A stretch of 64,000 bases of DNA. It comes from Amoebophrya sp. A120 (lineage: Eukaryota; Protista; Dinoflagellata). The translations under genes were made by a program, and so were the position numbers. Location of the stretch: the NCBI GenBank assembly GCA_905178155.1, contig CAJINV010000009.1, positions 789,349 to 853,348 on the forward strand, read 5' to 3'. Below are positions 9,201 to 51,856 of the stretch, piece after piece (the stretch's first letter is position 1; the number at the start of each line of letters is the position of its first letter). The notes under the pieces are model-generated. The model was not told the origin of the DNA and did not search any database. It worked only from the letters and a program-made list of their open reading frames with translations.

Positions 9201-10676
9201 GAACATTCTGAACTCTAGTCATACGGCTTGCCTGTCTGCTCCGCACTACGCAATCGACACGCCGGGAGTCGCCAGTCGGGATGTCAGAGACCAAGCCGAG
9301 GATCTTCTGACCAGGAGCGGTGCCACGGCCTGGTATTTGACGCAGAGTGGTAGTATTTTCTGAAAATTTTTCAACCATCCCCATCGAATTGGAATTTGTC
9401 AGGCAAAAGATGGAGTAAAGTTGGCTTTGTTTTGTCATGCAATGCTGGTTCCGCATCCTCGCCCACCCGACCCCCTGGGGAGAAGAGCCATTGCCTGTTG
9501 CGCTGGGTGCGAGTGCGGAGGGAGGTGTCCACTACATCATGATGACGGTGATGCAAAAAGTGGATGTGGATGGTTAAAAATTTTCAGAGCATAAATAGCG
9601 GCAGCAGTTCAGCAGCGTCAACCGCTCGCGGAGGTAGTCATCTGTTGCAGCTGACGACAGGCGCATCACTTTACCACCCGCAGAGGGAAGTTGCAGGAAG
9701 ACGCGGGAGTGGCTTGCTCGAGCACGAGCAGCGGCTGCGGCAGGATGATCTCCTACATCAAGCTGATGAAGTCGTAGATATGGAGGACATGCAACTTGTC
9801 CAAGTTGCTCGACATAACTTTCTCGGCGAAGGACAGGAAATGTTGGCCAGTAGCACGAATGCGCCTACCGCGGCGTCGCAAGAGACAACCTCGACGTCCA
9901 CCTCCCGCAACATCCTCTCCGCCACTGGAATCAACCTCCTCGGACCGTTTTTCAGCTCGGTTTGCATTTTATGCGTCGCTATGTTGGAGGCGGCCTACGT
10001 GCTGTGGCTCACGTTTAGCTTTCCACGCGGCGTCGGAACCATGTTTCTCGCATTGCACGGGCTTGGCGACGCCTCGAGCGGTCCCCTGATCGCACTGCTC
10101 ATCGTCTCCAGTACGACGGCAGACGCAGAGACAAGGAGAGTAAGAACTTCATCCGGTGAAAGAACAACGACAACGAGGACCTCCTCTCATGCAGGAGCCC
10201 TTCTATCCAACGGAATGATTGACAACCGTGCCACGACAGCCGCCAACAGCTTCAACTCCCGAACAGTCAGTCGCGTTGTGACGACCCGATTCGACCTGCG
10301 CTTGGCCGTGTGGGTGTTGTGCTTCGGATTAGCTTGCATCTTCGTGTTCCTCCTCCGCATAGAACAGAACCCAATTGACACGTATTGTCAGCTGCTCACC
10401 GCAGTTTCGGTCTATTTCCTCGGCGTTCTGATGGCGAGCATTCGGGCGCTGTTCGGCGGCTTTATCCTGCTCACCTGCAACGTGGAAACCGCAAGACTGC
10501 AAATCCCGTTTTTTTGGTGCAGCGGCCACTTTCTGTGCAACTTCATCACCCCCGTTATTGGGGTCGGTTTGCCGTTGAGCCAATTTTTAGCCTACTTCGC
10601 GATTGTGTTGTCTTGCGTCGTCACCCTCGTACTCAGCGGCGAAAAGACCGTTCGAGGATTCGTCAGGTCACCGTGA
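3205..10676 (+). CDS. Very large multi-pass membrane protein, probably MFS-like transporter with giant hydrophilic insertions; exons 3205-3686, 3968-8264, 8431-9353, 9599-10676
   Basis: Four ORFs join in frame via element 3687-3962, a GT-AG intron 8265-8430 and element 9354-9593. Hydrophobic helices with MFS-like character (LFWSGFV|ITQIVLFAPFLD; LLQTIHGVAQGLACAAC; SLGLGKFCGPLV; FHAPFVSHGIIFLIQAFLVF; several C-terminal helices). Confidence 0.6.
3687..3962. mobile_element. Introner-like non-canonical intron, family C (276 bp)
   Basis: Perfect 32-bp TIR TATCAAATGTAAAAATGTCTGGGTCTGGAAGA; direct repeat GTCAT at 3682-3686 and 3963-3967; removing 281 nt fuses ORF 3205 to ORF 3957 in frame. Confidence 0.93.
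8265..8430 (+). other. Canonical GT-AG intron (166 nt)
   Basis: AAG|GTACTT ... TTGCAG|GTT; AT-rich; its length restores the frame between ORFs 3957 and 8425. Confidence 0.75.
9354..9593. mobile_element. Introner-like non-canonical intron, family B-related (240 bp)
   Basis: Imperfect TIR TATTTTCTGAAAATTTTTCAACCATCC ... GGATGGTTAAAAATTTTCAGAGCATA; degenerate repeat GGTAG/AATAG; contains TTTGTCATGCA; removing 245 nt joins ORF 8425 to ORF 9564 (QSG|SGSSSA). Confidence 0.78.
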
Positions 10677-11651: not shown

Positions 11652-14600
11652 ATGTCCGGTCGTCCCCCGTTTTCATTGGCGGGAGACAACGGCTCGCCCA
11701 GTGAGCTTTACGGTGGCGGAAAGAAACACTGGCTCCGCCGCCTCCGACTGGACTACCGGCCTTGTGCAGCCCCGTCTTTTGCTGCAGCCGTGGATGATCG
11801 ATATCGAGATGACGAACAAAGCGACAGCCCACTCGGCCCGGAGTTCTGCCTGCGGGATCGGACCGCGCCCGGCTGCAAGCAGGAGGAGGGGCTCCGGTCC
11901 ATTTGGGCCAGCGCGGATCGCAAGGCACGTGAGTGCTTGAATGCTTTGTATCTGGTGAACATGAAGACTACCAGTGGAGGCACTACTAAAATTGGAAGTA
12001 GTAGTAACAAGCATACCTTGGGCGCCGACCAACCGCCACCGTACCCGGCCCGGCTGGCGATACGAGTGTACCCCGAGTTCTTTTTCACCGTGAAAAGCTA
12101 CCAAGCTGTGCTGACCGAACGCGAACGCCAGGAGAATGCGTTTGTGTTCGGCGATGGTGTGCACGGGCAGGGGTACTACCTGATCCGTGAACGAGAGGAA
12201 GAGGCAGCGAGTTCTGAATTTGGGATAAGTGGAAGTGCAATTACCGGCACCACGGTTGCATCCTCAAGCTCGTCCCATCCTCATCCTTTTGCAAAAGTCT
12301 TGAAGTCGTCCGCCTCCGCGGGATCATCTTCATCTTCGAGGGGCGCCGCTGCAGCAAGACGCGCGTCCATGATTTTGCGTCCCGCGTTCCGCGGAGGCTT
12401 CATCGGTCCGCGCGAGGGGTTTTTCTTCGGTAGGACCACCCCAGAACAGGGAAGGATACTGGGGTACTACCCGCAGCGGCTGCCAGAGGAAGAGATCGAC
12501 TTCGAGCTCGCCCCGAAGTTTACTGGTCCGCGACCCGGCTTTTTCTTCGGAACGCGCCCGATCCGCGACGGCGGCCGAGAGCATGCAGCTACAGTGCTCT
12601 ATTTGGGTTACCACCGGGACAAAGCGAAGGCCTTCGCGGCGTCCTCCAGTGAGGCTCTTCATCTTTCCGTTGCGCAGCAGCAGCTCGAGCAGCAGCAGCC
12701 ATCGGCGGCCGCACTGTCGTCGAAAATATTGAGGACGCTCGCGGCCCAAAACAAATCAAAGTCACTGCAAGCGAAGGAATTGTCGTCGAATGGTGCAACA
12801 GCGTCCCGAGCGCATGCTGCAGCTGGAACGCCGGGGGCAAATGCGAATACGGATATTTTTGCCGATTCGACGAGGACCCCGAGAGACGACAGGGGCGACG
12901 CGAGTGCAAGTGCGCAATACAGTGGCGACCAAACCCAAGCTCCTTCCGGTCGGGTAGGGACGAATTTTTCAATCACTTTTTCGTCCACTTCCGCGGGGGC
13001 CGTGATGCGACCCTTTGACCCTGGCGCGGTCACCGGGGCCCGAATTTTGGACATCGTGCTGGAACTTGCAAAGTATGACGCATCTGCCCGTGAATTCCTC
13101 AAATTGCTCCTGCACCGTCCTTCCACAATCGATGCCTGGAAGTCATGCACGGGTCTGTCCTACAGCGTTCCGAGTCTTACTGATTGTTCAAAAGACGACG
13201 CCGGAAAGCAAAAATTGATGCTGAACAAGGAGCACGGCGCCAGCAGCGGCTCCAGCACCGGTGCCGCGGCCGCAAGCAAAGACAAAGAGCCACTCGTGGG
13301 CCGAGCGTTGAGCTCGGTGCTGAAACGTCCCCGGTTTGATGCTGCGTGGTTGCAGGGTGGGCACAAGAGTTATTCGTTGCGTCAATTTGTGTTTGACCGT
13401 GCCCTACTGGCCTTCATGTACCAAATATCCAGCATGGCGTGGCGACCGTTCTTCAACGAGCATCGTGTGCTTGCCGCGATGCCGAATGCGCGGCTGTTGA
13501 ACAACGCTTTCCGGTTGAAAGGAGAGGGGAAGACCATCGAGAAGCAGATTCAGGTTCTGCAGTCCGTCTCCAAACCAGCCTGGGCGCAGCGCCGTGTCGG
13601 GTCGCCGCCTGGGCGCGCCTCGTCAGCCTGGATGGGCGGCCACGCAGCTTACCAAGCGGAAGGCGATGTGTATCACTGGGCGCGCACTAGCAACAACTTC
13701 ATGCAGAAGAGCCTGCTTTACAAGGTAGTCCTTCGGAAAGATACACACTACACCTGTTGCAGTTTCATAATTCTAGCACGCTGGATTTGATTGACATGGC
13801 TCTTGTTCAGTTGTATGTGACATCAACAAACATGGAAACAATTGCAAACACGAAGACAAAACGCTGAGTGTTTTAGTTTTCCAGTTCGGTGGTCGGGTTC
13901 CAATGACTAAGAATAAAAAGCAGGAAGGTGCAGTTGTGGTTGATCAGCTTTTCTTCTCATTGAAAAACGTACTAACACAGGCGACCAACAAATCCCTGGC
14001 AGATGACGACCTCGGCATCAACAGCCACTCTGTGTTGGCCTTCGGGAGCGTACAACCGAACGTGAACCAGTATGAAGGTGGGCGCTACAACAATGCCCAC
14101 ACAACGACGTATGGTCCAAACGCAAACGCCAGCGGTGCACCACTGTCCGCACGCTGGGGCACGCACAGTGGCATGTTTACGCCCAGGGAAGCATCTTTGC
14201 AGATGACCCCGCGATCTGCGCGCTTGCAATTCGATGGTGGTAGCAGTGGGACGCCTTTTTGCGTTGAAAACGATGCCCTCGGTGGCAATGACACCATCCT
14301 CACCGCTCCTGGAGCTTCTGCTGACACGTGTTCGCTGGAATTGGATCTTTCCTCTTGCTTTCGCGCGATGCATGATCGCCTGATGTGGCAACCTGTAGCG
14401 GTGAGCTCCCAGTATCGGTTTGTGCCGCAGAACCGGAAATCCATCCTGAAACACGAACAACAAATGAACGCGGACACGGTGCTGGCGTCGTGGGTGAACA
14501 GAGGAAACAATCCGCGGGACAAAGGCAAACTTTGGGCCGCGAGAGAGTTTGATCCGAGCTATTCAAGTCGTACCGCCGGCGGGGGCAAGACCAAGAGCGA

Positions 14601-17600
14601 GAACCACATTGTGGACATGAAGACAATGCCCGCCGACTGGAGCAAGAAGTTTCCCTTACGTCATGACCAGATGGCGGCCGTGACCTGGATGCGCGAGCGC
14701 GAGTTGCGAGCGAAGCCTTTCCGGGTTGAGTACGAGCGGATGCTGGAGGGCAATTTCTTCCTGCAGGATTTGGCCAACTGGGATTTGGAGCTCCGAATGC
14801 AGGCGGACTACTCTGCCCGGGGCGGCGTTTTGGCAAACCCGGTGGGTGCCGGAAAGACCGCGACCGTGCTGGGTTTGATTGCGCTGGACAAAGAAGCTCC
14901 GTTACCGTGTGACGAGCCCGGGGCAATGCCGCAGAAGCCACCGACCCGATTCCCAAAAGGGTTCGAGCACGACCGCAAACCAAAGCAGCCGGTCGCAACG
15001 GCGGCGGACAGCGACGAAGAGGAAACCTCGTCTTCCCCCGCAGCAGCTGCGCCCCTTTTGGAAGCAGGCTCGTCTACTAAGAATAAGAAACTGAACAAAC
15101 GAAGCCGCGGACGAGGAGCGAAATCAACGTCTGAAGACGCACATCAAACTCGAGCAGCGAAATTTTCTCGCCAGACACCTTCTCGCAAGACACCTTCACC
15201 TTCCAAAAAATTGCCGTCTGCCGTTGTCGCGAAGGCAAAAGCCTGCGGCAGCGTCAAGAAGAGTAACAGCAAAGTGAAACCAACGGCGAAGGGAAAAGCC
15301 ACTGTCGCGAAGAGCAAGGCAGCTGGAAATAAGGCGAAAGCGTCGCCTCCGCCGTCAGGAGGTCGAGCAGCGCTTCAACATATTAACGACGTCGTGCCTC
15401 CTTCTACTCAAACCGCCGCGGCGAGCGCATCATCGTCTTCTGGTCCGCCCAACGCGAGAGATGGAGGCAAAAGCAAGAAGAAAAAAGTCGGGTCCTCTTC
15501 GGACGCAACTTCGAAATCCGTTGCCGACCAGGTGCGAAAAGTCTTCAGCGACCAGGAGGCACAGGTTTTGGACCACGACTGCTTTTTTCCGAGCAAGGCG
15601 ACTCTTGTTTTTGTCCCCGGCCACCTGGTGGACCAGTGGGAGCGGGAAATTGCTAAGTTCATGCCCGATCACAAGCTCAATATCCTCGCGCTGCGCAACG
15701 TCAACCCCCTCAAGCTGCTCACCGTCGGCGACATCCAGCGGGCAGACATCGTGATTTGCAGCTACCGCATCCTCTTCTCAGAGAACTACCAGCGCCTGCG
15801 GTTGAAAGAGCTGCTGTTTGGCTTCGGTGCGCATTTTTTGAAAAAACCAGGCAACGCAGCTGCAACAACTTCTGCCACGACGAAAACAGAAAGTGAAAAA
15901 GAACCGAAGAAAGTTGGCAGTGAAGAGGACGAGGTGCTGGAGGCTGCGTCACAACGGGAAGGTTTCCGTTCTCCAGCTGCAGCGATGACCTCGGCCGCAA
16001 CGCTGCCGACCGAAGCGAACAAGGAAACAAATATTGACGGGGGTGACACAAACACCATGTTATCTGCGTCTGGGCCGACACAGACTCAGACGCTGAATCT
16101 GAACTATAGACCGACGAGCAGAAGTGGTGCACGACCTCAGGCGATAACGATTCTGAAGACAGAAAACCAGCAGCAGCAGGGAGGCAAGAGCAGTAGTTCC
16201 TCGGCAGCAGGAGGAGAAAATCAACAACCCAGCTCGTTCGCAATGGCGCACAGGCCTGATCTTTCCCTCTGGATTCAGGATCGCAAGTACGGGATTCGCA
16301 CCAAGAAACGCAAGGTTGACTCTATCCTCTCCGTAATGGACCACGGAGCGCGTGCGGTAGTGGATGCCACGGGCGTGGTTCCGAATGAGAAGAACAAGTA
16401 CAACAAGAAAAGATTTGTCGAGGAGGAGCAAAATAAACCGCTGTCCACCGTGTTGCAGGGACCCGCAAAGGAGCGCTTCAAATCCTGGCACTTCTCAGAC
16501 CGCGAGCGAACGATGCTCCATTCGCTGCTGAAGGAGCAGGTGCGAGAGTTTCGCAAGAACCCGACGCATTTCCAGCACTGGCACGACAGTCAACGCGATG
16601 GTGTCAAGTACTTTCGATCGATCCACCGGCAAGCCTTGCTTGTCGCCGCGGCGGTTGAGACGGCGTCCCGCGCAAACAAAAGTTTAAGCGAGAGGGCCGA
16701 GCAGCGGCGCGCCGCATTGTTGGAGAAGCTAGCGCAAGAATTGTCGGACGATGGCGACGAAAGACCACCGCAAGCAGAGAGCGACGGCAGCGAGCCAGAT
16801 TCACCTCTTGCACAAGAGATACAAAACGCGCAAGGAAAAGCGAAAAAGAAAAAGCCGCGGCCACGAGGGCGACCGCGGCTGAAGCCGAAGCCCATCGAGG
16901 CTGCTCCGAAAGCGAAAGTACTAGCTCAGAAACCCAAAGTTCTCGTTGCCTCAGTCCTACTGAAGAAGCCGAAGCGGAAAGAAACCCGGCTTGTTCCGCC
17001 TGGCGGTGGCAAAAACAAAAAGCTGCTGACCAAAAAGAAGGAGAACAAAGCAAGTCCGGGTAAAAGCAAACAAAAACGCCACACACCGGGTAGGAAGAGG
17101 CCTGGGAAAGAGATGTCAGAGCTGCTCGCGAGTCCTGACAAGGTCGCCGAGCCGCGCGAAGACTCGCTCCAAGACACGGAGTACTTCACGAATTGCGTGC
17201 GCGAGTTTCGGAGAGCCCGGCTGCTTGGCACGGAAGAGGAGTGCGCCACCGCGCTCGAGATCCACGAAGCCCAGGACCTTCGCTTCCCGCTACTGGAGAT
17301 GTTTCTCTGGCGTCGTGTGGTGTTTGACGAGATGCACGAGCTGGAATCGTTCAATCCGAAAGAAGTGGACATTCTGCTGCGGTTCCGCGCCCTGTTCAAG
17401 TGGGGACTGACCGGCTCCCCCGCGGCCTTCTCGGTTCGATCCGTCAACGCCATGGCCTCGCTCTTGTCCATCGATCTGCTCGGCGTGTCAAAGGAGGAAT
17501 CCGGTCTGTTGGACCAGGTCCACCAGTACGCCGAGGCGTGCGCTGTGACGCAGGGCGGGGACCGGGGCGGGGCCTTGAGCGAGCACCTAGCCACCTATCT

Positions 17601-20600
17601 CGCTCAGGACGAATACAACTTCGACGCGGTGACGCAGCGGCTCAAAGCCTGCGTGGACTGGTTCTGTAATTGCTGCGGTGCAAAGCTGCTTGTGTCCCAC
17701 AAGATGCCGCAGGTCTTTCGCGGTACAGTCCGCTGTGGCGAGTGCGGCGCCGCGAACCACGCAGAGGTCCAGTTCCGCCGGCGCACGAGGCTCGACGAGG
17801 ACGCAGACTCGCCCTCCAACATCAATAGCTCCCCGCAGCCACTGCCCGAGGTTGGCAGTCGGGTCTACGACCCCTCGCTACGCTGGTCGGCGTCTAACTT
17901 GATGACCACGAATTTGGTGGAGGCCGCCAGCAGCCGCAATTCGCGCACGCGCATGTACGTGGAGGATCGGCCGCTGAGCAGCGACTTGGCCTACGTGGTC
18001 CAAAACGACGACGTGGACAGAAGGCGTCTCCACGCCTTGCAGTATCGAAACGTGAATTGCGGGGTGCGGTGGACGGTCCCTTTGGACGTTGCTGATGCTG
18101 GAGGGAAAGGCGATCGACTGAGCCGTAGCAATCCAAATCCTAGGCAGGATATCTTTCAGCTGAAGAACAAGACACAGCATCACGACGTTCTTGACGAGGA
18201 TGTTGAGGCTCGCCGGCTGCACGACCATGATGTAGCTCCTGAGAACGCGCTTGTTCCCGTGACAAGATCGGCCGATCATAACGCAAACGCAATAGCCGAG
18301 AGCAGACAGAAGATCGTGACGAGGAGCGCCAGTGCTATCGCTGTCAAATCGTCTATTGCGATCCCTTCCTTTTCGCTGAGACGGGAAGACATGCTCTACT
18401 CAGATTTTCAACGGCAACTGGTGAAGCTCGAGGGCCGGCTGGACAATGCGGACTATCCAAAGAAAAAAACCCATCCACATCCAATTTGTCATGCAAAACA
18501 CGTATAAAATCATGTGTTTGTCATGCAAAAAATGGATGTCGATGAGTTTTTTTCTGTGGAAACGGACGGTCGCGACAGTAGTAGCAGCTCGTCGTCGGCG
18601 GACGAAGGTGCTGGGCAGGAGTACGACGACGTTAATGCTTTGCGAGAAGCGGAGCGAGAAGAGGCTGTCCTTGGCATGAGCAGCATTCGAAATAAAACAT
18701 CGAACAGCGGGGGATTCGAGCTTGCTGGCCTGAAGAGTTTCGCAACCGTTACCGCACAAATGCGAACAGAGACCTTGCTCTCGCCAGGCAGCGAAGATCA
18801 TGGCTCTTCCTTCGTGGACGTTGCAGACAAAGTCGCGCAGCGGAGCAATCCTCCTGGGCTGACGCCAGCACAGCAGGCAGGGGTGCAGTCCATCCCAGGG
18901 CTAGAAGATGATGGCATCGTGGAGCCCGTTGCTGGTTTGCTGTCTGCGGCTTCACGCCAACTGGTCGTCGCAGCGGAAGTGAAGCATTCGTCCCCAACCG
19001 CTGTAAACCCTTTCAACGCAGCCGAGGACCGGCATTTTCGGATCGCCGAGGAGAGACGGATGATGCGCGAACTCGACCGCTTCCGCAAAACCGCGCAGCC
19101 GCGACTCGTCGCCGTTCCCTCGGCGTTTGCGCTGCAGCGCTGGAGCACGCTGGCCCGGCACCCCTTCGAGCGGTCCGCCACATACCAGCAGAACGCCGCG
19201 CGGTTCCTTCGCGAATTTGCGTGGCGGCGGTCCTACCCGTTGCGCGTCCGCGTGGTCCAACACGTCGTTTATGTCACACAGATGCCACAGGAGCGAGCCT
19301 TGTACTTGAACCGCGTCCAGTCGCTGCCGACCTGTCGGGAAGTCTACGAGTTGCCCGCCGCCGATGGCGTGGTCACGAGCACAACCCGCGGGGGAACCCA
19401 GCGCGACGCGGGGCAGCAGTTTGCCACTGGGAAGCACATACCGATCTCTAATGTGGAAATCGAGCGCCGTCGCGAATTGCTGGAGCTATGCTCGCACTTC
19501 GCAAAAGGTAGGAAGTACGAGAGATGCTGCGCTTTTTTTAGAGACCACCACCCGAGAGAAACTTCATTTTGATGATGAGCTGCTGCGTCTGATGGCTTTA
19601 GTACTATCTTCAGACGAGCAGGTCATGAGTCGGTGTGGGCTAAAGAACAAGAAGTAGATGTAGGTCTGCTTATAAAGGACACGCATGATCTCTCTTTGTC
19701 GCGTACGCGTTCGATTTCCACGCCACAAGAAAACGCCCAACCAAAAAATCAGGCACGCACGGTTCTGTCACCGGCGAGGTTCTTCGCGTGCTTGCTAAAC
19801 GGCGCGCTGATGTCGAGTCCGATCTTGCCCAGGTCGCCTATTTCTTGAAGCAGCTGGAGTGTTGTTTGCGCGTGCGCGTATTGGGGGCAGAGTCTCGAAG
19901 CAGCTCAGGATCGTCGTCGTCGGCCGCCGAGGGCGAGAACGAGGAGGAAGAGCCGGGTCTCTTTTCGTCTTTTTTCCCGACCACCATGGGCAAAAACGTC
20001 CGCAAGCAGCGGGACAAATATTACAGTGGCAGTGTTCTTGGGAGGAGCAACGTGCGGGTGATGAAACGCAAAGACTACAAGGAGACGGAAAACTCCGGAC
20101 CGTGGGCATCACAATCGGTTGCAAACTTGATGAGGGCTAATGATGCTAGCATGGTACACGAGAAGGGTCTTCCCAAACACTTGTCGGAGAAAATTCGAGC
20201 TGTGATGTTTCATCCAACGTCAAGTGCGGACACAGCCAGCGGCTCGGGTGGAGCCGCCTCGTCTTCGTCGTCCTCGGCACCAAGGAGCGGAGGTCCCTTG
20301 TTGGTGACAAAGACAGGCGCGGTGGTATCATCGACAACACTTGCAATCATCGCTGCGTCTGGTGCCGATACCATCAAGAACAGCGACCCTGTGTCGAACA
20401 AGGACAGACGTAGTGCCAGAGACGGGCTCGGTCCGGGGGAGCGCGCTACGCTGCTGGGCGGTGGTGGGGCGTCATCGTCTTCCTCGACCCTGTTGCCCCC
20501 ATTGTCTTCCTCTTCTAGTAGTAGCGCCGCCGGTGTGCAGCAAAATTTGGTTTCGGGCTCGACCAACTATGACCCGTTTGACTTGGATATGATAGTGGAT

Positions 20601-23600
20601 GCGGACGACGTCGAGTTCCCCCTCGCTGCGGGTAACTACAAGACATCGAACGAAGACCGCACACAGCTGCTACCGGACCCGGTATTGAGAAAGTTGCGTG
20701 ACCTGGAGAAACGCGCAGACGAAAATGCGGCAGCTTCCGGGTCGTCCGCAGAGGAGCAAGAAAGCGGCCAAGAACCTTTGGACTTACCGGGCATCGTAAC
20801 CAGGCTGCTGCGCCTGTGGAACGAAGAAGTTCCCGTGCTCGCATCCCGGTCCATATTCCACGATGCTTTCAAAGAGAACCGACCTGGGGACGGGGATCGG
20901 CTGGACGCGCTGGAAAACCTGGGAACCCTCTCCCGCCGGAAAAAGGAGGAGCAGTTGCAGATGCACGAGCGCGACCTGTCGCAGCTCATTTGTGCACAAC
21001 TGGACCGGTTGCTGACCGCCTATCAGCACTACAACTTCTTCCGCAAGACGCTGGACGTGTACGCCGACTCCACCGCCAGCTCCGCAGCCTCGTCGGTCGG
21101 CGGAGATGTTGGGGACCACCTGAGTGGTGTTGGCAGTGCGAAGAAGAACCTCGAGGCTTTTCTTTCTGATGGCAACACCTCTGCGCGAAGCTCCTCTTCA
21201 GGATCGTCAGGGTCCGCCGGAAACAACATCTCCAGTGATCAGAAAGTACTAGCACTAGACCAGCAGAGCATGAACAACAAACTCGCTGAGGATGCAATAG
21301 AAGAGGTGGTCTCGTCCGCTAAAAACGAGAAGCTGCAGCTCTCGTCGACCACCTTTCCGCAGGCCGATGCGGCTGCCAGTTTCACAACGAGAGTTGATGC
21401 GGCCGCAACAGGCGAAAATAATGCGGTCGTCGCCACAGCTAATGCCGCGATTGCAGTGCCAGCGCAGCTCCAGCCGAGTGGTAATATCACAACTTCGCAT
21501 GGCATCAAGAACCCGTCCAGGGCGGACCAGCGCTACTGCGCAATTTGCACGGAATACCACGACGTGTCCGAGCTGGGAATCACTCCGTGCGCGCACGTTT
21601 TCTGCGTAGTTTGTCTGAACGCGATGGTGGAGAACCAGTATGCATTGCAAAAGTATGGTACTAGTATAAATTGCATTACAAATTTTGGCAAGAAGAGAAG
21701 TCAAATTTGTAATGCTGTTTTACCTTAGGAAGAAGATTTGTCATGCATATTTGCAATTAGTACGAGTGCGATACTTTTGCACAGGATAACCAGCGGAAGT
21801 GCGCGATTTGCCGGCAGCCCTTGCACGAGAAGGACATTTTGTCGCTCTCTTCGGAGCTGCATGCCTGGAAGACGGAGGTGGTGCAGCAAGAAGAGCAGGC
21901 TACCATGGCGACGCTGGGCCAAGTAGGCAAGCGATTCCGCTACCAGAAACTCACGCGCGGCAGTCTGCTTTCGCCCGCCGTGAATGAAGGAGGTGCTGTG
22001 TTCGATCAGCCGGAAGCTCTTCTAGAGCCTCCGCGAAAGATATCAAAAAAGATGACCATGAAAGATATCAAGAAGAGCGTGGAGCAACAAGACCACTCGC
22101 CCACCCACGGCCGCTTTTACCCAGCCAAAAGACAGAAGCAGAGTCCTGACGGAAAAAAGAGTCAGAAAAATTTTGCTGGAGGAGCGCAGAACAGGAAAAA
22201 TGCAACCACCACTACGTCCGATGAGGAGCTTGACCCGCAATGCTCCGCGGTGACAATATTGGAGGACGTCGCAGGGCCGATCGACTTCGTCCGGACGTTG
22301 ATCCCCAAAGGACAAATCGCTTTTCCAGTAGCAGCGAATGTTGGCAGCACGACCGCCAACGACTCATCTACTTCGTCCGCGTCGTCTTCGTCCTCCTCGG
22401 CAGGAGCTGGCAATGGAAAAAATGAAGCCGCCGTGAGCAGCACAACTTCAACTGTATGGAAGAGTCAGAATCGAAATCAACAAAATCGAAATAATTTGTG
22501 ATGCATAAAATCGATACCAGTTGGAGCCTCAGTTTCCAAGTAGTGCATGACAAATTTCGGGAGAACCAAAATCCAGTCCGTCATGCTGCTTGGGAAACGG
22601 AGACTGCTCCTGTCATGCTACCCGGGAAGCACATCGCCTTCCCCTAAACAGGCTTGCAAGCGGTTTCACTTGCCTGCTCCCCAACACAGGCTGCGCGTGC
22701 CCTACATTTTATGCATGACAAACTATTTCGATTTTGTCCATTTCGATCCTGACGCATCCATAAACTGAGAAAGAGTTGTATCCCCTCGTAGACATAGCGG
22801 CGACGTACGGGTCGAAGATGCAGAAGCTAGCGGAGCTACTGACGAAAATCAAGGGCGACGACAAAAACGCAAAGATCCTGGTCTACTCCCAGTGGGACAA
22901 GGGAAACAAGTTGGCCTTCGAAGCCCTGCAGAACCTCCAACACTTGAGCTGCCACCTGTTCAACGGCGGCGTTGCCGCGAAAGCACGCCTCCTTCGCCGG
23001 TTCGCGGACGCCGAGCCGGGAAAGGCATCATTAGACGTGCTGTTGATTATGGGACTCTCAAATGTTACATTCTCAACTGTTACACGATTTGTCATGCAAA
23101 ATTTCCGTCAATAGCTACATGATCAAGCTGCTTCGCATGACAAATTCCCGAAGAGCTGCCAGGCTGAAAATCTACTGTGCCAAATCTGTCATGCAAGATG
23201 CGCTAGGTCTCCCGTCCCCTTTCACGTTTGCCATTCCTGCATCACAAATTCATGCAACAGGAGTTGAGAATGTAACGTTTGAGAACACCATATTGATCCC
23301 CCTGGACTTCGGGGCCAGCGGTTTGAACATGGTGCTCGCACAGCACATCGTCTTCGTGCACCCCTTATCAACTGCAAAAATGTCTGGGTCTGGAAAGTTG
23401 GAACTTGTGATGCAAATTTTGGAATCTAGAAAACTCTGTATTGCATGACCAGCAAGAGGAGTCCAGTTTCTGCTATGCGGGGAGGCCATTTGTCATGCGG
23501 AATAGGCATCAAGAAGCACTCAGAAAATCTGTGATGCCAGGGAATACATCACAGACGTCACGGGCCATGTGAAATCTGCATGACAAGTTCGCATCCTTCC

Positions 23601-23840
23601 AGACCCAGACACTTTTGCATTTGATACCCCTTCAGTTTTCCCTCCGTCGCCCAGACGCGGGCCGCGGAGGCGCAGGCCATCGGCCGGGTGTGCCGGCCGG
23701 GGCAGGCACGCGGAGACATCCACGTGTGGCGACTCTGCACTTTGAACACTGTGGAGGAGGAACTTATCAACGAACGGTGCGGAAATGGCTCCTCGACGGG
23801 TGGGAATGTTTTTCATGAGGAGCAGGCTGCTCCTGCGTGA
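11652..23840 (+). CDS. SNF2-family helicase/ATPase with C3HC4 RING finger (RAD5/RAD16/SHPRH/DNMT5-type architecture); 8 exons: 11652-13724, 13885-18453, 18568-19507, 19753-21638, 21794-22454, 22768-23047, 23298-23365, 23632-23840
   Basis: Motif I RGGVLANPVGAGKT, Ia ATLVFVPGHLVDQW, II RRVVFDEMHE, III KWGLTGSP, RING CAIC..PCAHVFCVVC..NQ|RKCAICRQPL, YGSKMQKL, IV KILVYSQW, V VLL|IPLDFGASGLNM..AQHIVFVHP, VI EAQAIGRVCRPGQ. The model uses two GT-AG introns (13725-13884, 19508-19752) and five hairpin introns; every junction is frame-consistent. Confidence 0.88.
13725..13884 (+). other. Canonical GT-AG intron (160 nt)
   Basis: AAG|GTAGTC ... TTTTCCAG|TTC; joins ORF 11613 to ORF 13903 in frame. Confidence 0.72.
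18454..18562. mobile_element. Introner-like non-canonical intron, family B (109 bp)
   Basis: Imperfect ~30-bp TIR TATCCAAAGAAAAAAACCCATCCACATCCA ... TGGATGTCGATGAGTTTTTTTCTGTGGAAA; direct repeat CGGAC 18449-18453/18563-18567; removing 114 nt gives DNAD|GRDSS and removes an in-frame stop. Confidence 0.88.
19508..19752 (+). other. Canonical GT-AG intron (245 nt)
   Basis: AAAG|GTAGGA ... AATCAG|GCACG; frame-consistent between ORFs 18514 and 19788. Confidence 0.72.
21639..21788. mobile_element. Introner-like non-canonical intron, family A (150 bp), inside the RING finger
   Basis: TIR TATGCATTGCAAAAGTAT ... ATACTTTTGCACAGGATA; direct repeat ACCAG 21634-21638/21789-21793; removing 155 nt supplies the final CxxC of the RING; interior homologous to 944-1103. 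Confidence 0.93.
22455..22762. mobile_element. Introner-like non-canonical intron, family D (308 bp)
   Basis: ~57-bp imperfect TIR starting TATGGAAGAGTCAGAATCGAAATC and ending ...TTTCGATCCTGACGCATCCATA; direct repeat AACTG 22450-22454/22763-22767; removing 313 nt gives TTST|EKELYPLVD in frame. Confidence 0.9.
23048..23292. mobile_element. Introner-like non-canonical intron, family E (245 bp)
   Basis: 31-bp TIR TATGGGACTCTCAAATGTTACATTCTCAACT ... AGTTGAGAATGTAACGTTTGAGAACACCATA (4 mismatches); direct repeat TTGAT 23043-23047/23293-23297; removal restores helicase motif V. Confidence 0.92.
23366..23626. mobile_element. Introner-like non-canonical intron, family C (261 bp), inverted relative to the other two family C copies
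   Basis: TIR TATCAACTGCAAAAATGTCTGGGTCTGGAA ... TTCCAGACCCAGACACTTTTGCATTTGATA; direct repeat CCCCT 23361-23365/23627-23631; removal joins VFVHP to FSFPS..QAIGRVCRPGQ. Confidence 0.93.
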
Positions 23841-24424
23841 AAGGTGGTTCCTAGTGCGACGTGAAAGCGTTCTCAGTCAGGAAGCAAGTTTGATCATCCA
23901 GTATCTCTAACTCTATCTCCAAGAGTGTATCAGTCTACCTTCGGCAACTACAAGAAGAACAAGCGCGCCAGTGCAGTACTAGCAACAGTGATGTAAACGA
24001 CGCGGCGGGTTCTCGCAGGGCGCAGCGGCCCATCGACATTCAAATTCCGAATTTTTGAAAACAACAAGAGGCGAAAAAAGAGCCCCCGAGAAGACACACA
24101 AGAACCTACAAAGAGTAGGTTTCTTTCGTCTGAGAGTGCTGGCCGAAGGCGAAGATATTTGTTCGCGGATGTGGTTTTTTTTTGGGCATAGGAGGTCTCC
24201 TTTGTTCGCTTCGGTTCTTGTGCTTCTTGGTCACTTTATTTGCACCTCGAGTCCTCTGATCCACTACTCGAGGATTCTTGGTGATCGTGCTGTTGTTCGA
24301 CCCGCCTCAAAAATCTTTCTGCATACACAACTAACTTCCATCAGAGCAGCATGTGGTCATTGCTTGGGCTAGTGCTTGTGCTCAGACGTGTCCCTGTCTG
24401 AAAAAGCAAAAGGACACCGTAAAA

Positions 24425-26779
24425 ATGCAGTCCCTCGAGGTTTATCAACTGTAAAAATGTCTGGGTCTGGAAGATTCTGACACTTGTCATGCACGTTTTG
24501 CATGAGCCACCATGTCTGTGATGCATACCCTAGCGATACAGATTTTTTGAGGGCTTCTTGATGCCTATTCCGCATGGGAAATGCCTTCTCAGCGTAGCAA
24601 AAATTGCATTCCCTTTGCTACTCACGCAATACAGATTTTTTTGGAGTCCAAATGCAGCATCACAAGTTGCATTCTTCCAGACCCAGACATTTTTGCATTT
24701 GATGAGGTTGAGGTCGAGCTCGACGAGTTGGATCTACCGCGGCATGGGGATGAACGGTACGGGGTGGATGACGGTGCTCTATTTCGGCACGAATCGTCCG
24801 AGAGAGTTGTAGTCCCCTCACCGCTTGCCAACCACGGCGCCTCGTCCTCCTGCAGCTCTCGCTACAGCACGATCGAGCTCTTGTGCCAGAACGCCGGTTT
24901 TGACAGCTACTACGCCTTCTTCCGGCGGTTGTTTCTGCATTCTGTGCTCTTTTTCGCAATCGCCATCATCGCCATTCCCTTTCTGGTGATGGACCACCAC
25001 TCGTGCGCAACAACGGGCTACCTGGGGGTCATCAGCCACCTGTTTTTCCTGTTGCTGCTCTACGGATCGATTCTGGAGGAGCTGCGTTGCGCGTGCAGGT
25101 TCTTCGACCCAACGGAAGATGGTGGCAGCAGATCAAGCAGTCCGAGCGGCGGTTCGTTTTCCGGATTTTTCTCCATTTTGTCTACAGCAGTAAGCCCGGG
25201 CGGCGGTGGTTCGGCTTACGATTACTTGGAACAGTTAAAGGAATACACGAAGGACTACGATGAACAGGTTGAAGAAGCCACTGTCAGGAATTTCGGAACT
25301 ACATCTTCAACCACGTTTGTTCGCGGTGGGCCGGCAGCACCTACGTCATCAGCACAAATGCTGGAACAAACCTCGTCTGCGTTTTCGTTTGCAACGTCAA
25401 GCACTAGCCGCTTCGAAAACAAAAGCAAGACATCAAACTCTTCAACTGCCGAACTGGAGATCGACACTAGCACCGGCGCGAACAAAAGCAGCACTGCCTC
25501 CGCTGCAACCAGTTTAGCCACGATGATTGGCAGCGCCACCCGGTGGAAAGAATCACCAAAAGCGGCAGATGTGTTGGAGCACGAACTAAGTGGAGGAGCG
25601 GCAGACGCTAGGAACGCGGCGCCACAAGGAAGCGGAAAAATGACCAAATCTTCAGCTGCGTCCTCAAGAGGCGACGTTGTCGTGGTCGAGTTGCGACCAG
25701 ACCAAGAAAGCGGAGCAGCTGTATCAACTTTTGTTCCTTCGCAGTCGTCGCCCCCACCGAAGAGAACAACGAGCGGCAATCTGTGGACGAGCTTTTCGAA
25801 TGCGGTTTTGCAGCCAATCACCAACACCCTGACCATCACGTTCATTCGGTGTCACTACATCACCCAGTTCTGCAGGACTTGCTGCGATTACTTTTTTTTC
25901 GAGGAGCTGTTGCACTTCTTCAAGAAGAACGAGAACGCGATCCTGGTTTTGAAGCAAATGACGTGGCGATTGGACATGTATTGCGACATTTTGTTCGTGC
26001 TCATCGCCAGAAATTGCGGCTCTTACCTCTGGTGGGCGAGTTTGGCGATTTTCGTCTTCGTGAACTTCTTGCTGCAATTCGTCCTGCAGATTTTGTTCTT
26101 CGCCTGCACCGACTGCGACCAGCAACTGCCAAAGTCGACCGGCTTTTTCTGGCTTGACTTCGTCGTCGTCAATAAGGCGGTCCTGGTGCAGTTGCGCAAG
26201 ACGGAGATCATGGTCGCTCGGCAGGAGAATTTGGGGAGCGATAGCCAACCACAAACGATGCAAATAATCGCTGCGGGAAGTTCAGGTGGAAACGAAATAG
26301 TAGCTCCATTAGGACTTGTGCAATCGTCATCTTCGTCTCCGAGCAGCCTCAGCTTCGTCGATAGTTCCAAGAGCACGAATCTGCTCAGTTGGGTCCAGTA
26401 CGCCATCATGATAGAAAAGTGTTTTCTGTCAGATCTGATTCAGATTTTGATTCAAACAAATTTCCTGCTTGACCTCTCTACCCCAAACAATAGCCTTGTG
26501 TACTGCAGTGTGCTGTTTAGCTTTGTGAACTTTTTGCTGAACTTTTGTCAAATAGTAACGGGGGTGATATGGTTTTACCGGAGGCAAAGAATAGCCGAAG
26601 AACGTATGAAGTCACACCTTGAGGCAATAAAACATGATGAAGAAGCGATAATATCGAGTAGCCTAGGTGGAGCTTCAGCTACAGGAGGGGGATCCAGCAC
26701 TGGTGGCACGCTTACAGCAACCGGGTCCACTTCCGCTTCAACTACTCAAAATGAATTGATACCGACAGGGAGAGTTTGA
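24425..26779 (+). CDS. Multi-pass membrane protein of unknown function; exons 24425-24442, 24710-26779
   Basis: ATG CAG TCC CTC GAG GTT joins ORF 24581 after removal of element 24443-24704 (MQSLEV|EVELDELDLP); several hydrophobic helices; RLDMYCDILF and SDLIQILIQ loosely recall XK-like membrane proteins (weak). Confidence 0.7.
24443..24704. mobile_element. Introner-like intron, family C (262 bp)
   Basis: TIR TATCAACTGTAAAAATGTCTGGGTCTGGAAGA ... TCTTCCAGACCCAGACATTTTTGCATTTGATG; direct repeat AGGTT 24438-24442/24705-24709; the 267-nt removal is in frame and can also be read as GT(24440)-AG(24706). Confidence 0.9.
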
Positions 26780-30910: not shown

Positions 30911-31703
30911 CCACGTTGGCGTTCTTAGCGAGGATGTCGCAACCACAAGACAAGGAAAACTACAGTGGAGGACGCCCGATATCCACCATGTGCTGTGTAA
31001 TCATAAAAAAAACACACATCGCTCTAATCGAACTCACGACCACCTCCGCGACCACCACTTCCAAAACATAGACGAATGTAAAGTAGTAAAGCCAGCATAA
31101 CAAGCGGTAGAAACTAACTTTCCTTCTACTGGCAAGAAATCCCTCGCTTTTCATCAATTTTCATCGTGTGCAGCTTACATTGCAGAGCAGGAGGTGGACG
31201 CCGCCGTATTATAATTGCAAGGAAATGCAGAACCTCGTCAACAACCACGAGAATATACTGAATACCACAACCAAGCTCCTTCTTCTGAAAATAATTTTGC
31301 TGATCACCAAGTAGATGAATTTGAATTTATGCAGTTGCGGCAGTTGTACTCCTGAGGCTGTTGCTAGCACGCAGTAGTCGTAGTGTGTCATCGTCATTGG
31401 ATATTTCCACCTTCCTGTGTCGCTCGAGCACTATCGTTTTCATCATCGCATAGCTTCCAAAACTACGATGATCTTCGTTGGTCGGTCTTTATCCGAGAAG
31501 AAATCATGATCATCAATTTCACTCGTGATCAAAAGTCGGTGCTGCATAGAATTCCCCTTGATTTTTTGGATCACTAGTTCGCTACAAGATTTCTGTTTTT
31601 TTCTTCCCCAACATGTGAGTTAATAACGTTGCTTCTTGCGCCAGCACCTTCGCTTTCTTATCAGTTCTAGCGTTGTCGTTGTGGCGCTTCCAAGATTACC
31701 GAG

Positions 31704-34700
31704 ATGATGTCGTATCGGACGCGTCGCGCCTTTGTGTTTCTCATGCACAGTGTGGGGACTTTCTTTCCCTGGCACTTGCACTATGTACCGAATATGGCGA
31801 AGTACGAAGTCCGCGTGCCATCGTTCTTTGCTCACGCCCTCCCGCTTGTCTTTCCGCTGCTTGGCCAGCGGTGTTTTCCGGGGTTCCCTGGTGACCAGGA
31901 AAGGGCGGAGCAGTGGCACCGCTCCTACAACCTGATGGTGAACAAACTCGCGAATCTGCGAGGCGTGCTTGTGAATAAGGATCGGGATAAGAAGAGCAGC
32001 CAGGACACTGCGAGCGAAGAGCCCACTGCATCTCCGCGAAAACAGCGAAAGAAACTCGTTGACAGGCGAACCCAGGCAGCGTATTTGTTGTCACGCCGAA
32101 GTAACGAGGCAAAGGTCGCAAGAGAAAGGGCTAGCGTGGAACTTGACTCATCTTCCGACGACCCGGACCGCTTTGTAGGCTTCCGCTTCGACGAGAACAA
32201 AGCCAAAGAGACAACCACGGTGTATAATCTTGTTTGATTTGTTGACTGAGCTGCGGGCGTTTTGGCCACGTGACTCTCACTCTGTTCTCTCCGGCATAAG
32301 ATTCAGTCGTCGACCACCGACCACGCCATGTTAGAGTCAGTCTGTCTGTGTTCAGGTCATGATTTTGATTGCAGGTCTTAATAATAATATCGAACACGCA
32401 GTGAATTTTGAAAACGAACCATCTTTATCAGGACAAGCTGAACCACTACTCCCACGAAGCTACCTACGAGGATTTCGTCCTGAATTGGCAGAGGCAGGAG
32501 ACCGTGACCACCATGCTGGAAAACGGCAGATTTTACCACGCGCGGACCCAGGACCGCGTACAGGGCGTCACCCTTACCGAGGACATCGCAGCGGAAATCA
32601 CGACGCAAGCAGTAGCAGGACAATCACCTGTAGAAGCCGATAGAAAAGATGCGACGTCAAAAATATCAAAAGTTTCGACAACTTTGTTGCCGAGCAGCAT
32701 GAAAAAATCGGCTTTCCTACACGTCGAAGACGAGGAGGAGTGCAATCTGGCACTGATGTTCCAGGAGATCCTGACCGCGCACCAGAACGCCAGACGGTAC
32801 GAGGCGTACCCGCAAGCGGACCTGGTGTATTTCCTGCAGGCGTTCATGCGCCTGGGCCAGTCAGTCCTGCGCTACGTCTTCCGCTTCTGGGCGGACACGG
32901 GGTTCTCGTGGCGAGTGTTGCTCCTGGGCGGGCAGGGCTACGATCGACACTACTTTCTGGACAGCGACGCGGTAGCACGCGAGCGGCGGTTTTCCACGGA
33001 AATTCGGCGGAACAGCACGTGGGCAACTGTAAAGCACGCAACGCTGCAAAGATCTTCAGTAGAAGAACGGAGTCGCGGCCACGACGCGACAAGGGCCGTA
33101 CCAGCAAGGGGCGAAAATCATTCTAAAAAAAGCATAACCAACCTGATCGGCCAGGAGTTCCCGAACCGTCTCAAGGACAGTGCGTTGACCCGGGCGACCC
33201 GCTCGCTGTCCATTGCCGTCGCGGCCTCCAGGCCCCGGTACGTGAATCCCTATTCCACGACGGCGCAGTGGCCGGTCTTCACGGCGTTGTCAGAACTGAC
33301 CTCTGAGCTAGTCACCGCGCTGCGCTCGATTTTGCGGCAGCTGAAGGAGCGAGACCTACTTGGACAGGACTGCGAGACCAGTCTTCGTGTAGGCCACGGG
33401 GTCGGTTTGGACGGAAAGTATTTTGGCGCAACAGAAAGCCTTCGGGTGCAGTGCTGGGAAGTGCGGAAGCGAAAAGTTTTGGAGTATTTGTCGAGAGCGT
33501 CAAAACCTACCGCAGGCGACACTGTTGATGACGGCTTGGAGCGGCTCGCTGACATTGCGGACTACGCCCGAAGGAAGAAGGCCCAACTCGCAAAAGAAGC
33601 TGCGACTGCTGGTAGTAGTGATACTGCACGGCGAAACACCAACATAACAACTGCTGCGATCGATATAATTCCCAATGACTCGTCTGACGACGCCGACAGC
33701 CAGGAGGATAAGGAAGAACGCGCTCGACATGCGATAATTTTTCAGGAGCCCATGGCGAGCCTGCCTTCGATGGAGGAAGTGAAGGAGTGGACCCGTGCGC
33801 AATTCTTCAATACGACTTTTCTCGACTTTTCTGATAAGCGGAGTAGACCAAATAAGGCTGGAACAAACGCACCACCAGAAGCAAGTAAATCACCCACAAA
33901 GACCAAAAAGACTTCGTCGGCGGTACTGAGCGTGCACGATTTCCTGAATGATTTCTTCAATAAGACTCTGCAGGAGGCGGTCAGGGAGGAGATCCTGAAT
34001 CTGGGCGAACGCGTGCTGACGGAAGAGAGCACTGCCCTGGATTTGCAAGAGAAAGTGCTAAACGCAGGACCAGGAGGTGCCTTGAGATATGACTCCTACG
34101 ACCCCGTTTCGGCTACCCGCATTTTTCTACATGTTGTGAAGCAACAATCCTCTGCAGACGGGCCGGAGGAGAAAACGGAAAAACTGCAAAGCGAGAATTC
34201 GCTCGCAGCAAGACCTTCTCCTAGTAGTCATGCTGACGACCACGGGCACCAGCAAAATGCGCAAACAGAAAAAGAGGAGCAGAGGCCTCTCTACTACTAC
34301 CCTCTTGACACGATCCGACACCAAGAGTTCATTTTTCGCTACCGGCGGCCGCAAGTTGGGGAAGACGACGGGTTGGCTCATGTGTATGGTGCGGAGCGAG
34401 CGAAGAGAGAAGGGAAAAATCCGATGTACGTGCCGGACGAATTTCTACCTGGAGCAGCTGTGGGTGTTGGAAAACGTCGAAAAGAACCTTCTGCAGCTGC
34501 AAAGGAACCCGCAGCGGCTGGGTCGATGTCGGGCAGCATTGCAGTAGTTGGAGACGAGACGAGCAGTCCTAAAAGTCCACCAGATCAACTACCCCGGCGC
34601 AAGCTCGACCCGGTGTACGAGTTTCTGCGCCAGCCTCTTTCTGCAAAGACATTTTTGCACATTGACAACGTGCAGGCCATGTTCACGGATCTGGTCGAGG

Positions 34701-37700: not shown

Positions 37701-37801
37701 TCGGTGATGGAGGTGTAAGACTCTCAAGACACAACGCTTGTCCTCCGCGCCATTGCACCGCGACTGCATGTGAGTTTGAAGATGATTTTGTACACATTTG
37801 A
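31704..37801 (+). CDS. Large hypothetical protein, possibly with a divergent LicD/fukutin-related (FKRP-like) C-terminal domain; exons 31704-32219, 32432-37801
   Basis: A GT-AG intron 32220-32431 (212 nt) joins the two ORFs in frame (KETTT|DKLNHY). The C-terminal PVCVRQAQSNALSKVVAWWES ... ALNAFR ... LFPWSPDLDL resembles the FKRP/LicD pattern PPCC..LR..GSLLGA.R..IPWDxDxD. The 5' end may extend further. Confidence 0.6.
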
Positions 37802-38161
37802 AGAAATAGGGAAAAACAACTCGATTGGTAAGTGCTATCATCGACAGGACAATTTTGAGTTTTTGCAGCCTCTGGCGTCCGGAGTGTGCAGTCTTGGTGC
37901 AGTTCTTCTTCAATGTGATACTCTATTCAACACTCTAGAACTAGACAAAACGTCTATCCGCAAGTGAAAATGATCGACCCTGTTGTAATTGCCGGCTTGT
38001 AAAAGCAGTTTCATGATGTCTTTGCCATTCCACAACCTCCGCGATTTTTTAGTGTTCGTTTTCAGTTGCAACAGCCGTATTTGACGTTGGCAAAATGAAG
38101 CCGCCGGACTCTGCGTGTTCAGTTTGACGGGAGAATCACGCCCCTCTGTTGCAGCAAGAAC

Positions 38162-39165
38162 ATGGTGCCTCGCGGCATCTTCCGCGAAGCTACTCCCGTC
38201 ATGGGAGGAACTTCCAGCTCGAAAACAAGATTCCGCGAGACGAGTTCGGTCGTTCGCACAAATAACGTGTGTCTTCGGTTGTTGGGACTGATTTATTTCA
38301 GTCTCCGCACGGACCTCTCCCGCGCCAGCGTAGACGAAATGGACAGCGACTTCCTCGGCGAGTTCTTCCAGAAAAGTGGGAATCACGAGCAATTCCTCAT
38401 GCTGATTTACTCAAGTGAGAATCAGAATTGCTTTGAAGGCGATGCGGCCAACTGCAGAGAAGCGCTGTCGTTATTGAGCCGCGCAGAAGACCTGATTGCC
38501 GATCAACCAAGTGGCGAGATGGTGCCGATGGGAAAGATTGGAGTCGACAGCGAGGAAGGAAAGCACGTAGAGAACTGATTCACATTTTGCTCCTGTCAAA
38601 TGAATGTAGTACCGTATACAAAAAAGAAAAACTAAACCGTTTTTGCAACGTGAAACTGAAAGTAGAAGCTTGTCTTTTCTAGTCGAAAGAATGTGAATGA
38701 GAAGCGAAGAAGATCCGAGGTTTTTCGTCCAAACTTGGTGTCGAATTAGGAATGCGCAACAAGGCAAAGTAAAATGAAACAAACCAGTTCGCCGCGAAGG
38801 AGGGAGTGGTCTTCAAATCAGCTGCGGACAAGTTGCCCCAACTGCGGTTTTACTACTGGAAAAAAGGCATGCCAAAAGTCAGCTTCGAGGAAATCGCGAT
38901 CCCGTTGCCCATGGAGCAAGAAACGAGGTCCGCAGAGGAGAACGCGGTCACCTTGGTAACGCGGATAAACTCGGCACACGCGAAAGTCGGCATTCCACGT
39001 CCCGCCCTGGTGGTGCCGCCAACATTTCGCAAGACGCAAGCTATAGCAGGGGAGAAATCAAGTAGTTCCAAGAAGAAAAACAAAAAACGAATTGATGCAC
39101 CGCAGGTAGATCAGCTGCAATTCGGACCTTCGATTAAGATCTCACAGTCAGGGGCTGATCTTTGA
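38162..39165 (+). CDS. Thioredoxin-fold protein without CxxC, paralogue of the downstream gene; exons 38162-38566, 38788-39165
   Basis: GT-AG intron 38567-38787 in frame; VPMGKIGVDSEEGKH|FAAKEG..LPQLRFYY..VSFEEI aligns by eye with VPVGKINIEDKPGRE|LAEKEG..LPSLRLYY..VSFERI of the next gene. Confidence 0.7.
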
Positions 39166-51793: not shown

Positions 51794-51856
51794 CTATTTG
51801 GCTTGTGGAGGCCACACGTTGTAAGCTATCTGGCTTGTGGAGGCCACATGTTGTGA
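51794..51856. repeat. Tandem duplication of ~32 bp
   Basis: CTATYTGGCTTGTGGAGGCCACAYGTTGT occurs twice, followed by GAATCA-like short repeats. Confidence 0.8.

Follow-up and report, generated by a model that had tools for sequence, protein, structure and literature searches.

A 64,000-nucleotide (nt) stretch of Amoebophrya sp. A120 (contig CAJINV010000009.1, positions 789,349 to 853,348 of the forward strand; hereafter the window) contains a gene for a SNF2-family ATPase with a C3HC4 RING finger that is interrupted by short inverted-repeat elements, four of which (E1–E4) together span 1,988 nt. We consider it highly probable that these elements are non-autonomous, are flanked by 5-bp duplications, are absent together with one copy of the duplication from likely mRNA, belong to the A120-type introners, and are distributed over coding sequence as measured below. 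They likely represent the class of introners already published for Amoebophrya (PMC7789003), so the finding is of a known kind. The splice model of the gene is identical to a public protein, P0001, and hence the gene model is public as well; the locus is therefore a clean illustration of the class. As far as found, the unpublished part is a gradient of element density with GC content at third codon positions (GC3) and an excess of neighbouring elements at 28–70 nt.

Inverted-repeat elements in the SNF2 gene

The sequence-only reading of this DNA had placed four elements of four families within the gene; their positions, TAT...ATA ends, 5-bp repeats and clustering were all confirmed. A fifth element, E0, which that reading missed, lies upstream. 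The gene and its features are the following.

11652..23840, + strand: host gene, SNF2-family ATPase with C3HC4 RING, 3,529 aa, 7 introns; splice model equal to P0001
13725..13980, + strand: first intron of the host gene, canonical GT..AG, supported by the open frame and P0001 identity; a contig piece starts at 13979
18454..18562, no strand: E0, 109 nt, duplication CGGAC, right end AAA, in a Ser-rich low-complexity insert
19508..19752, + strand: canonical GT..AG intron of the host gene, kept in DNA-type run X1 and skipped in likely-RNA runs
21537..21811, + strand: C3HC4 RING, residues 3091–3130, interrupted by E1 (Pfam PF00097, homolog profile)
21639..21788, no strand: E1, 150-nt TAT...ATA hairpin, duplication ACCAG, separates the last Cys pair of the RING from the rest of it; fold z = -5.5
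22455..22762, no strand: E2, 308 nt, duplication AACTG, where a Ser/Ala linker ends and 11 codons short of the helicase C lobe; fold z = -8.5
22800..23777, + strand: helicase C lobe, residues 3356–3509, interrupted by E3 and E4 (homolog profile, PDB match)
23048..23292, no strand: E3, 245 nt, duplication TTGAT, within the strand that precedes and enters helicase motif V
23298..23365, + strand: 68-nt exon between E3 and E4, carrying motif V; own piece in spliced contigs
23366..23626, no strand: E4, 261 nt, duplication CCCCT; motif VI lies 14 codons downstream

The labels of helicase motifs I–III, V and VI are those that we presume to apply to the host protein. E1–E4 start with TAT, finish with ATA and carry an exact 5-bp direct repeat, with 16–18 of the 20 terminal bases complementary. 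With E0 included, the exact duplication and the 5' TAT are found in 5/5 elements; AAA occupies positions 11–13 in E0, E1 and E4. Hairpin folds have z-scores from -5.5 to -9.7. When clustered with 335 elements from related loci, E1–E4 fall into four different families of 32. A sub-terminal motif, TTGT(C/G/A)ATGC, is located mostly 32–33 or 40–43 nt inside the ends, and by this shared motif the four families can be grouped into one clan.

Elements of this type have the properties of miniature inverted-repeat transposable elements (MITEs), namely terminal inverted repeats (TIRs), a target duplication of fixed length, no coding capacity and many copies. They are repeated within the window and have full-length relatives at 79–94% in related loci. 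The E4 family is shared with 3687–3962 and 24443–24704, both opposite in orientation (blastn). A scan of the window gave 10 matches, against none in 5/5 shuffles, the count excluding a palindromic array at 51.9–52.7 kb. Rfam has no matches in the window.

Base-exact removal

One contig per run in 4/4 runs (X3, X4, X5 and X6; at most two samples of one study) skips 155, 313, 250 and 266 nt at E1–E4, that is, the element plus 5 nt. In each skipping contig the four joints and the 68-nt exon are present, and no other letters occur. The exon proposed earlier at 23298–23365 is thus a separate piece in the spliced contigs of every one of these runs. E0 corresponds to a 114-nt skip in X3 and X6 contigs. 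Removal of each element with one repeat reproduces the spliced peptides that the sequence-only reading had quoted, and seven removals yield an open frame of 3,529 aa, identical letter by letter to P0001. Its claim of base-exact excision is borne out by both the contig joints and the public protein. Were any one of the four joints off by a single base, the end of the RING or the helicase lobe would be lost.

None of the equivalent placements of E0–E4 has GT..AG ends, and none has GC..AG or AT..AC ends. The candidates of a canonical U2/U12 intron and of a Micromonas-type introner were rejected on this ground.

The X3 and X6 contigs also drop the GT..AG intron at 19508–19752, across which an X1 contig is unbroken; they are therefore probably transcripts. 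In X1, unbroken contigs of single-copy depth cover six of eight element ends among the pieces shown. A total of 17,176 X1 contig pieces fit the window, with depth piled on the elements. Among raw RNA reads with the same species label (X9), ten map to a single element end, and the gene receives none. We conclude that E0–E4 are absent to the exact base from contigs that are probably mRNA.

Excision of the elements from DNA in some life stage, as for the TA-bounded internal eliminated sequences of ciliates, would also account for transposon anatomy, TA ends and base-exact loss, the more so as X3–X6 are RNA by guess. We regard it as very improbable, because the element-less contigs lose a GT..AG intron too, and because the DNA-type contigs of X1 run unbroken at single-copy depth over element ends (contigs do drop rare variants, and a minor DNA form could thus escape notice).

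Two further elements of the window bear on removal.

24443..24704, no strand: E5, reverse-oriented copy of the E4 family, located six codons inside the next gene; probably removed
9354..9593, no strand: G, element with a mismatched duplication, GGTAG / AATAG; an X6 contig restart and bin depth bear on its removal

At E5 the contig pieces end at 24436 and resume at 24704, which is the leftmost placement of a 267-nt skip, and the reading frame agrees. At G, contig sequence of X6 picks up again at 9596, and depth in the bin is 14.4, the value expected for a 245-nt skip being 14.39. This one indirect case suggests that the upstream duplicate is kept and that the 3' cut lies beyond the inverted repeat by 2 nt or more. 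One X3 contig spans the helicase gene, a 0.6-kb spacer (23840–24436) and the next gene, which is not proof of one transcript.

Host protein

Pfam identifies a SNF2 domain and a C3HC4 RING in P0001. As the sequence-only reading had anticipated, the spliced protein covers positions 1–40 of 40 of zf-C3HC4 (PF00097; 22.7 bits, cut-off 21), whereas coverage of the unspliced RING stops at positions 1–32. With a homolog profile, the score is 66.8 bits for the spliced form versus 39.8 and 22.6 bits for the pieces. The parallel expectation for Helicase_C failed, there being no match of this Pfam family to the spliced protein at E<=0.01; the lobe is recognized instead by a homolog profile and a PDB match. 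The profile, made from 84 relatives, gives 137 bits for the spliced lobe versus 49, 24 and 54 for its pieces, and its alignment is gap-free at the E3 and E4 joints. This score is partly circular, since the 84 relatives were chosen with the spliced query.

The best PDB match is 7r76 (E=2e-31; SNF2 part only, residues 1372–2265 of 7r76), which we take to be the SNF2 ATPase of Cryptococcus DNMT5; 6l8n matches with E=3e-9. Entry 7r76 is mentioned in a DNMT5 structure preprint. The DNMT5 and Rad5 (6l8n) ATPases have in common with the host protein the SNF2 lobes with a RING between them; the host protein differs in carrying long low-complexity inserts. Pfam finds no cytosine methyltransferase domain in P0001. 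Identity of the host gene with DNMT5 was rejected, as no methyltransferase family matches and the structural likeness is confined to the SNF2 part.

Five of eight relatives looked up are Amoebophrya proteins, the nearest named ones, and SNF2/RING proteins of 2,900–4,800 aa occur also in Amoebophrya A25, A120 and AT5. This suggests that host-like SNF2/RING proteins form a family in Amoebophrya. Word-indexed homolog searches with the host protein found nothing; a full HMMER search found homologs.

Elements in related loci

To test the proposed uneven density, one metagenome scan was made with the end pattern of E4, which gave at least 141 loci with 546 kb; the 77 loci listed of the 141 all come from one assembly. 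They share the families of the window at 79–94% and none of its unique DNA. Reading frames in these loci are predicted, and true conservation was measured for the host gene only. Viral contigs have no matches to the end pattern.

The duplication is exactly 5 bp in 200 of 266 end-anchored elements and has at most one mismatch in 233; alternative lengths of 3, 4 and 6–10 bp describe at most 4 of the 266. Its bases follow the flanking composition, with no sequence preference. A is found at positions 11–13 in 91–96% of 400 ends, and the sub-terminal motif, which was derived from the window copies, in 192/200 elements. A decay-tolerant scan identified 335 elements; in the control on the first 25 loci it gave 101 elements, versus none after shuffling.

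GT..AG can be placed on either strand in 19/200 elements, and any of four canonical-like pairs in 52/200. Both orientations occur at coding-called sites (19 vs 10 and 3 vs 10). Two window cases had raised the idea that the 5' TAT is a splice donor; it found no support, as mutated 5' and 3' ends number 7 vs 10 (P=0.63) and thus decay alike. Splice signals co-opted from the duplication were not seen in the related elements either.

The same elements might be removed in the same way by a non-spliceosomal, structure-guided nuclease and a ligase. This might be a protein of transposase origin that recognizes the sub-terminal motif in RNA, and a route of this kind has been proposed for the nonconventional introns of Euglena. 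The lack of a common donor or acceptor dinucleotide, the neutral duplication, the similar decay of both ends and the occurrence of both orientations all agree with this. So do the reports that U1 small nuclear RNA (snRNA) went undetected in both A25 and A120 (PMC7789003) and that the hairpin introns of Euglena come out as circles, with no lariats (review PMC11282704). We nevertheless think it unlikely that the spliceosome is dispensed with. In A120, 83/89 spliceosomal proteins and U2, U4, U5 and U6 are reported (PMC7789003), the host gene also holds GT..AG introns, and the spliceosome of Fritillaria removes MITE-derived non-canonical introns (PMC11282704).

Two related loci contain noteworthy copies. 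At L059:5001-5972 a 972-nt E4-family copy has identical ends and a 5-bp duplication; its longest open reading frame (ORF) is 86 aa, so that it is likely a longer deletion derivative and not autonomous. At L001:320-892 an E3-family copy stands beside an E4-family copy, 70% alike to window 23050–23628 over 604 columns.

Density across coding sequence

In the host gene, segments alignable to at least 30 of 149 relatives account for 14% of the protein and contain 3/5 elements; with at least 15 of 149 relatives the values are 17% and 4/5. A span of 1,009 coding bases takes in four of the five elements, for which uniform placement gives P=0.014 (the cluster having been picked post hoc). The sequence-only reading had proposed that the elements split the RING and motifs V and VI, that they cluster in conserved code and that low-complexity exons have none. 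The first part stands for the RING (E1) and the approach to motif V (E3); E2 lies in a linker and E4 14 codons before motif VI. The other two do not hold as proposed for this gene, in which E0 sits in a Ser-rich insert where 0/149 homologs align, and the longest element-free exon (4.5 kb) holds the conserved N-lobe motifs I–III. An uneven density, also proposed, draws its support from 193 sites in related loci and not from the host gene itself.

These sites are the 193 of 335 elements that were called coding; the background consists of 52,042 codons under the same filter. Hydrophobicity and GC3 were used as proxies of domains, since Pfam matched only 1/21 other long ORFs, below the cut-off. 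The remaining 20 of these 21 ORFs outside the helicase region are without a Pfam match, as reported for Amoebophrya.

Element density rises with hydrophobicity, from 2.1–2.7 per 1,000 codons in the three lowest bins to 5.3–5.5 in the top two. Hydrophobic windows have 2.3-fold more elements, and hydrophobicity is higher at sites in 60/87 ORFs. The bias is present in each of three tertiles of total GC, and total GC was therefore rejected as its cause. The gradient with GC3 is steeper: quintiles contain 0.71, 1.53, 3.36, 4.97 and 7.58 elements per 1,000 codons, about a 10-fold range, and GC3 is higher at sites in 69/87 ORFs. GC3 is the better predictor of element density. Sites differ from the background in GC3 (0.716 vs 0.615) and in total GC (0.559 vs 0.540), and GC content at the first two codon positions (GC12) is lower at sites. 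With stricter filters the GC3 ratio is 2.8–4.0. For 106 isolated elements GC3 is 0.696 vs 0.615.

Could the cluster reflect chance and post hoc choice, with uniform density and with the patterns in related loci arising as artefacts of frame calling or of the search? In the host gene n=5 and 2/5 elements are in low-complexity sequence, the frames are predicted, and sites are nearer to non-coding gaps (downstream, a median distance of 733 nt as against 1,078 nt), so that position may contribute. We find this improbable, as sites and background passed the same filter and the effect holds within ORFs, under stricter filters, for the 106 isolated elements and for pairs found without the search pattern (24/112, see below).

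Insertion preference and differential retention had both been offered as causes. The uneven density agrees with either, its best predictor being GC3 and part of the clustering being a neighbour effect at 28–70 nt. Under retention, insertion would be uniform, and low-complexity inserts would be younger or would have shed elements through deletion. A transposase cannot read codon position, yet GC3 predicts density better than total GC; GC12 is lower at sites; and conserved segments of the host gene are GC3-rich, at 0.79 vs 0.64, with or without elements. Because element-free N-lobe segments are also GC3-rich, GC3 marks conserved code and is not produced by the elements. Against retention, the bias does not rise significantly with age by three crude age proxies (rho -0.04, -0.10), and the 28–70 nt excess is left unexplained. 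We treat retention as a serious possibility, held at somewhat below even weight. The absence of an age trend with such crude proxies does not separate targeting from retention. Exonised remains of elements were not evident in low-complexity inserts, with two motif matches in 61,448 other bases.

Spacing of neighbouring elements

In 70 non-overlapping loci, 52/204 gaps between neighbours are 28–70 nt long. The expected number is 11.1 under uniform and 16.5 under GC3-weighted placement, with a maximum of 29 in 1,000 simulations, so that such neighbours are 3–5 times over-represented. Gaps below 28 nt number 2, versus 7.6–13.5 expected; the picker forbids gaps under about 10 nt. The excess is also found without the search pattern, in 24/112 pairs. 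Among all 217 gaps, 43 of the 52 close pairs join different families. Composite elements were rejected as the cause of the short spacers, since the 52 pairs show no spacer-spacer matches and no shared duplications.

At least four elements within 2 kb are present in 16/77 related loci of 2 kb or more. Given these frequencies of clusters and spacings, the E1–E4 cluster and its 68-nt exon, itself an instance of the 28–70 nt spacing, are ordinary for such a genome. Neither the spacing pattern nor a GC3 gradient for such elements was found in the literature searched, most subscription papers being outside the search; the spacing rule may be new.

Proposed mechanism

The introner interpretation preferred here can be expressed as three steps. 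For insertion, a cut-and-paste transposase would cut the two strands with a 5-nt stagger, whatever the local sequence, and would likely bind the sub-terminal motif TTGT(C/G/A)ATGC, 32–43 nt inside the ends. For removal, the paired ends would form a stem in the pre-mRNA that brings both copies of the duplication together, and a modified spliceosome would likely cut at fixed offsets from this stem. With fixed offsets the element plus 5 nt would be lost regardless of target and orientation, and the mRNA is identical for every register within the repeat. Finally, elements accumulate in GC3-rich hydrophobic code, 28–70 nt from residents of other families. Neighbours may be targeted via open DNA or a tethered transposase, and the spacing floor of about 30 nt likely reflects a minimum exon size.

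Several observations count against this interpretation. The RNA nature of X3–X6 is a guess from unstranded contigs of one study and two samples, neither the register within the repeat nor the cutting enzyme is observed, and the AAA of the published end motif is absent in E2 and shifted by 2 in E3. No autonomous copy with a transposase was found among long end-pairs in 546 kb, and Farhat et al. found no transposase in A120 (PMC7789003). The distribution statistics come from predicted frames in loci of one assembly (where listed, 77/141) that were found with a one-family end pattern and have no RNA; the coding test left out 142/335 elements (79 with no open frame, 63 with a weak score). With GC3 in the model the effect of hydrophobicity falls to 0.14 +/- 0.09, and N-lobe segments of the host gene with GC3 of 0.76–0.79 have zero elements. 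At the gene level, non-canonical introns are reported to favour less-conserved genes (PMC7789003).

We speculate further that all TAT...ATA families constitute one transposon system with a sequence-blind 5-bp cut, a shared motif, targeting at 28–70 nt and accumulation in old GC3-rich domain code, thereby creating micro-exons. The host would tolerate chopped domains, as splicing that measures a stem needs no signal from the gene. We hold this broader proposal tentatively, at just short of even confidence. If true genome-wide, the patterns would show one transposon system reshaping gene structure and the minimum exon that is allowed. Splicing without a detected U1 snRNA and without GT..AG is the problem that these introns pose. 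Given RNA, mismatched duplicates, such as that of G and the 33 further ones of 266 with one mismatch, would fix the register of the cut.

Other features of the window

Other TAT...ATA elements are located at 944–1103, 1778–1989, 3687–3962, 24443–24704, 31328–31548 and 48269–48377. The one at 1778–1989 is a decayed reverse E1-family copy, and that at 31328–31548 has weak ends and is without the shared sub-terminal motif. No such element is present within 31549–48268 despite long ORFs there. All ORFs of at least 300 aa are on the + strand, as reported for Amoebophrya.

A large inverted repeat at 52023–52588, with 216-nt arms (91%) of 37-nt tandem units, lies within a GC-rich stretch at about 50400–54200 that also has a 36-nt inverted pair at 51185 and 53862. 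It is possibly another mobile or structural element. From 60700 to 64000 GC drops abruptly to 30–36%, with short tandem units near 62420, and the last kilobase has 70% GC.

Comparison with known systems

In Amoebophrya A25 and A120, more than 60% of introns are non-canonical with inverted and direct repeats (Farhat et al. 2021, PMC7789003). For A120 this report gives 29,850 repeated introns in 1,954 families, the end motif TAT-N7-AAA and 83/89 spliceosomal proteins with U2, U4, U5 and U6, and describes intron borders as unknown; U1 snRNA was undetected in both strains. The window elements share with these introners the TAT-N7-AAA inverted repeats, the hairpin, a length of about 240 nt and the lack of GT..AG, as well as the many families, mixing with canonical introns and genes in one direction. 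The direct repeats of A120 introners are 5 bp in the legend of Fig. S19 and are given elsewhere as 3–5 nt and variable, whereas here they are exactly 5 bp in 200/266 and sequence-neutral. In its accessible parts the report describes no family-specific motifs and treats singletons as unrelated; here a sub-terminal motif joins 192/200 elements. Its per-gene trend with conservation is opposite in direction to the density pattern observed here. TIR families of A120 were later listed as 'TIR DNA, Unknown', with automated duplication lengths of 2–5 (Gozashti et al. 2025, PMC12130899).

Introners generally show a bias to GC-rich sequence and nucleosome linkers (Gozashti et al. 2022, PMC9860276). The MITE-type introners of Micromonas, Aureococcus and Polarella (PMC9860276; 10.1101/2020.10.14.339549) are likewise non-autonomous TIR elements with target duplications and a GC-rich bias. 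The introners of these three genera carry or co-opt GT/GC/GA and AG, often via the duplication; in contrast, neither the element nor the duplication supplies them here. The nonconventional introns of Euglena (PMC12501133; PMC11282704) resemble the window elements in the end-joining stem, slidable junctions, non-GT..AG ends and likely MITE origin. They depend on a CDG / CH'G pair placed at constant offsets and on the 3' end being followed by a purine (PMC12501133; PMC11282704), whereas the elements described here have TAT...ATA ends with stems of 20–40 bp, and the two lineages are unrelated.

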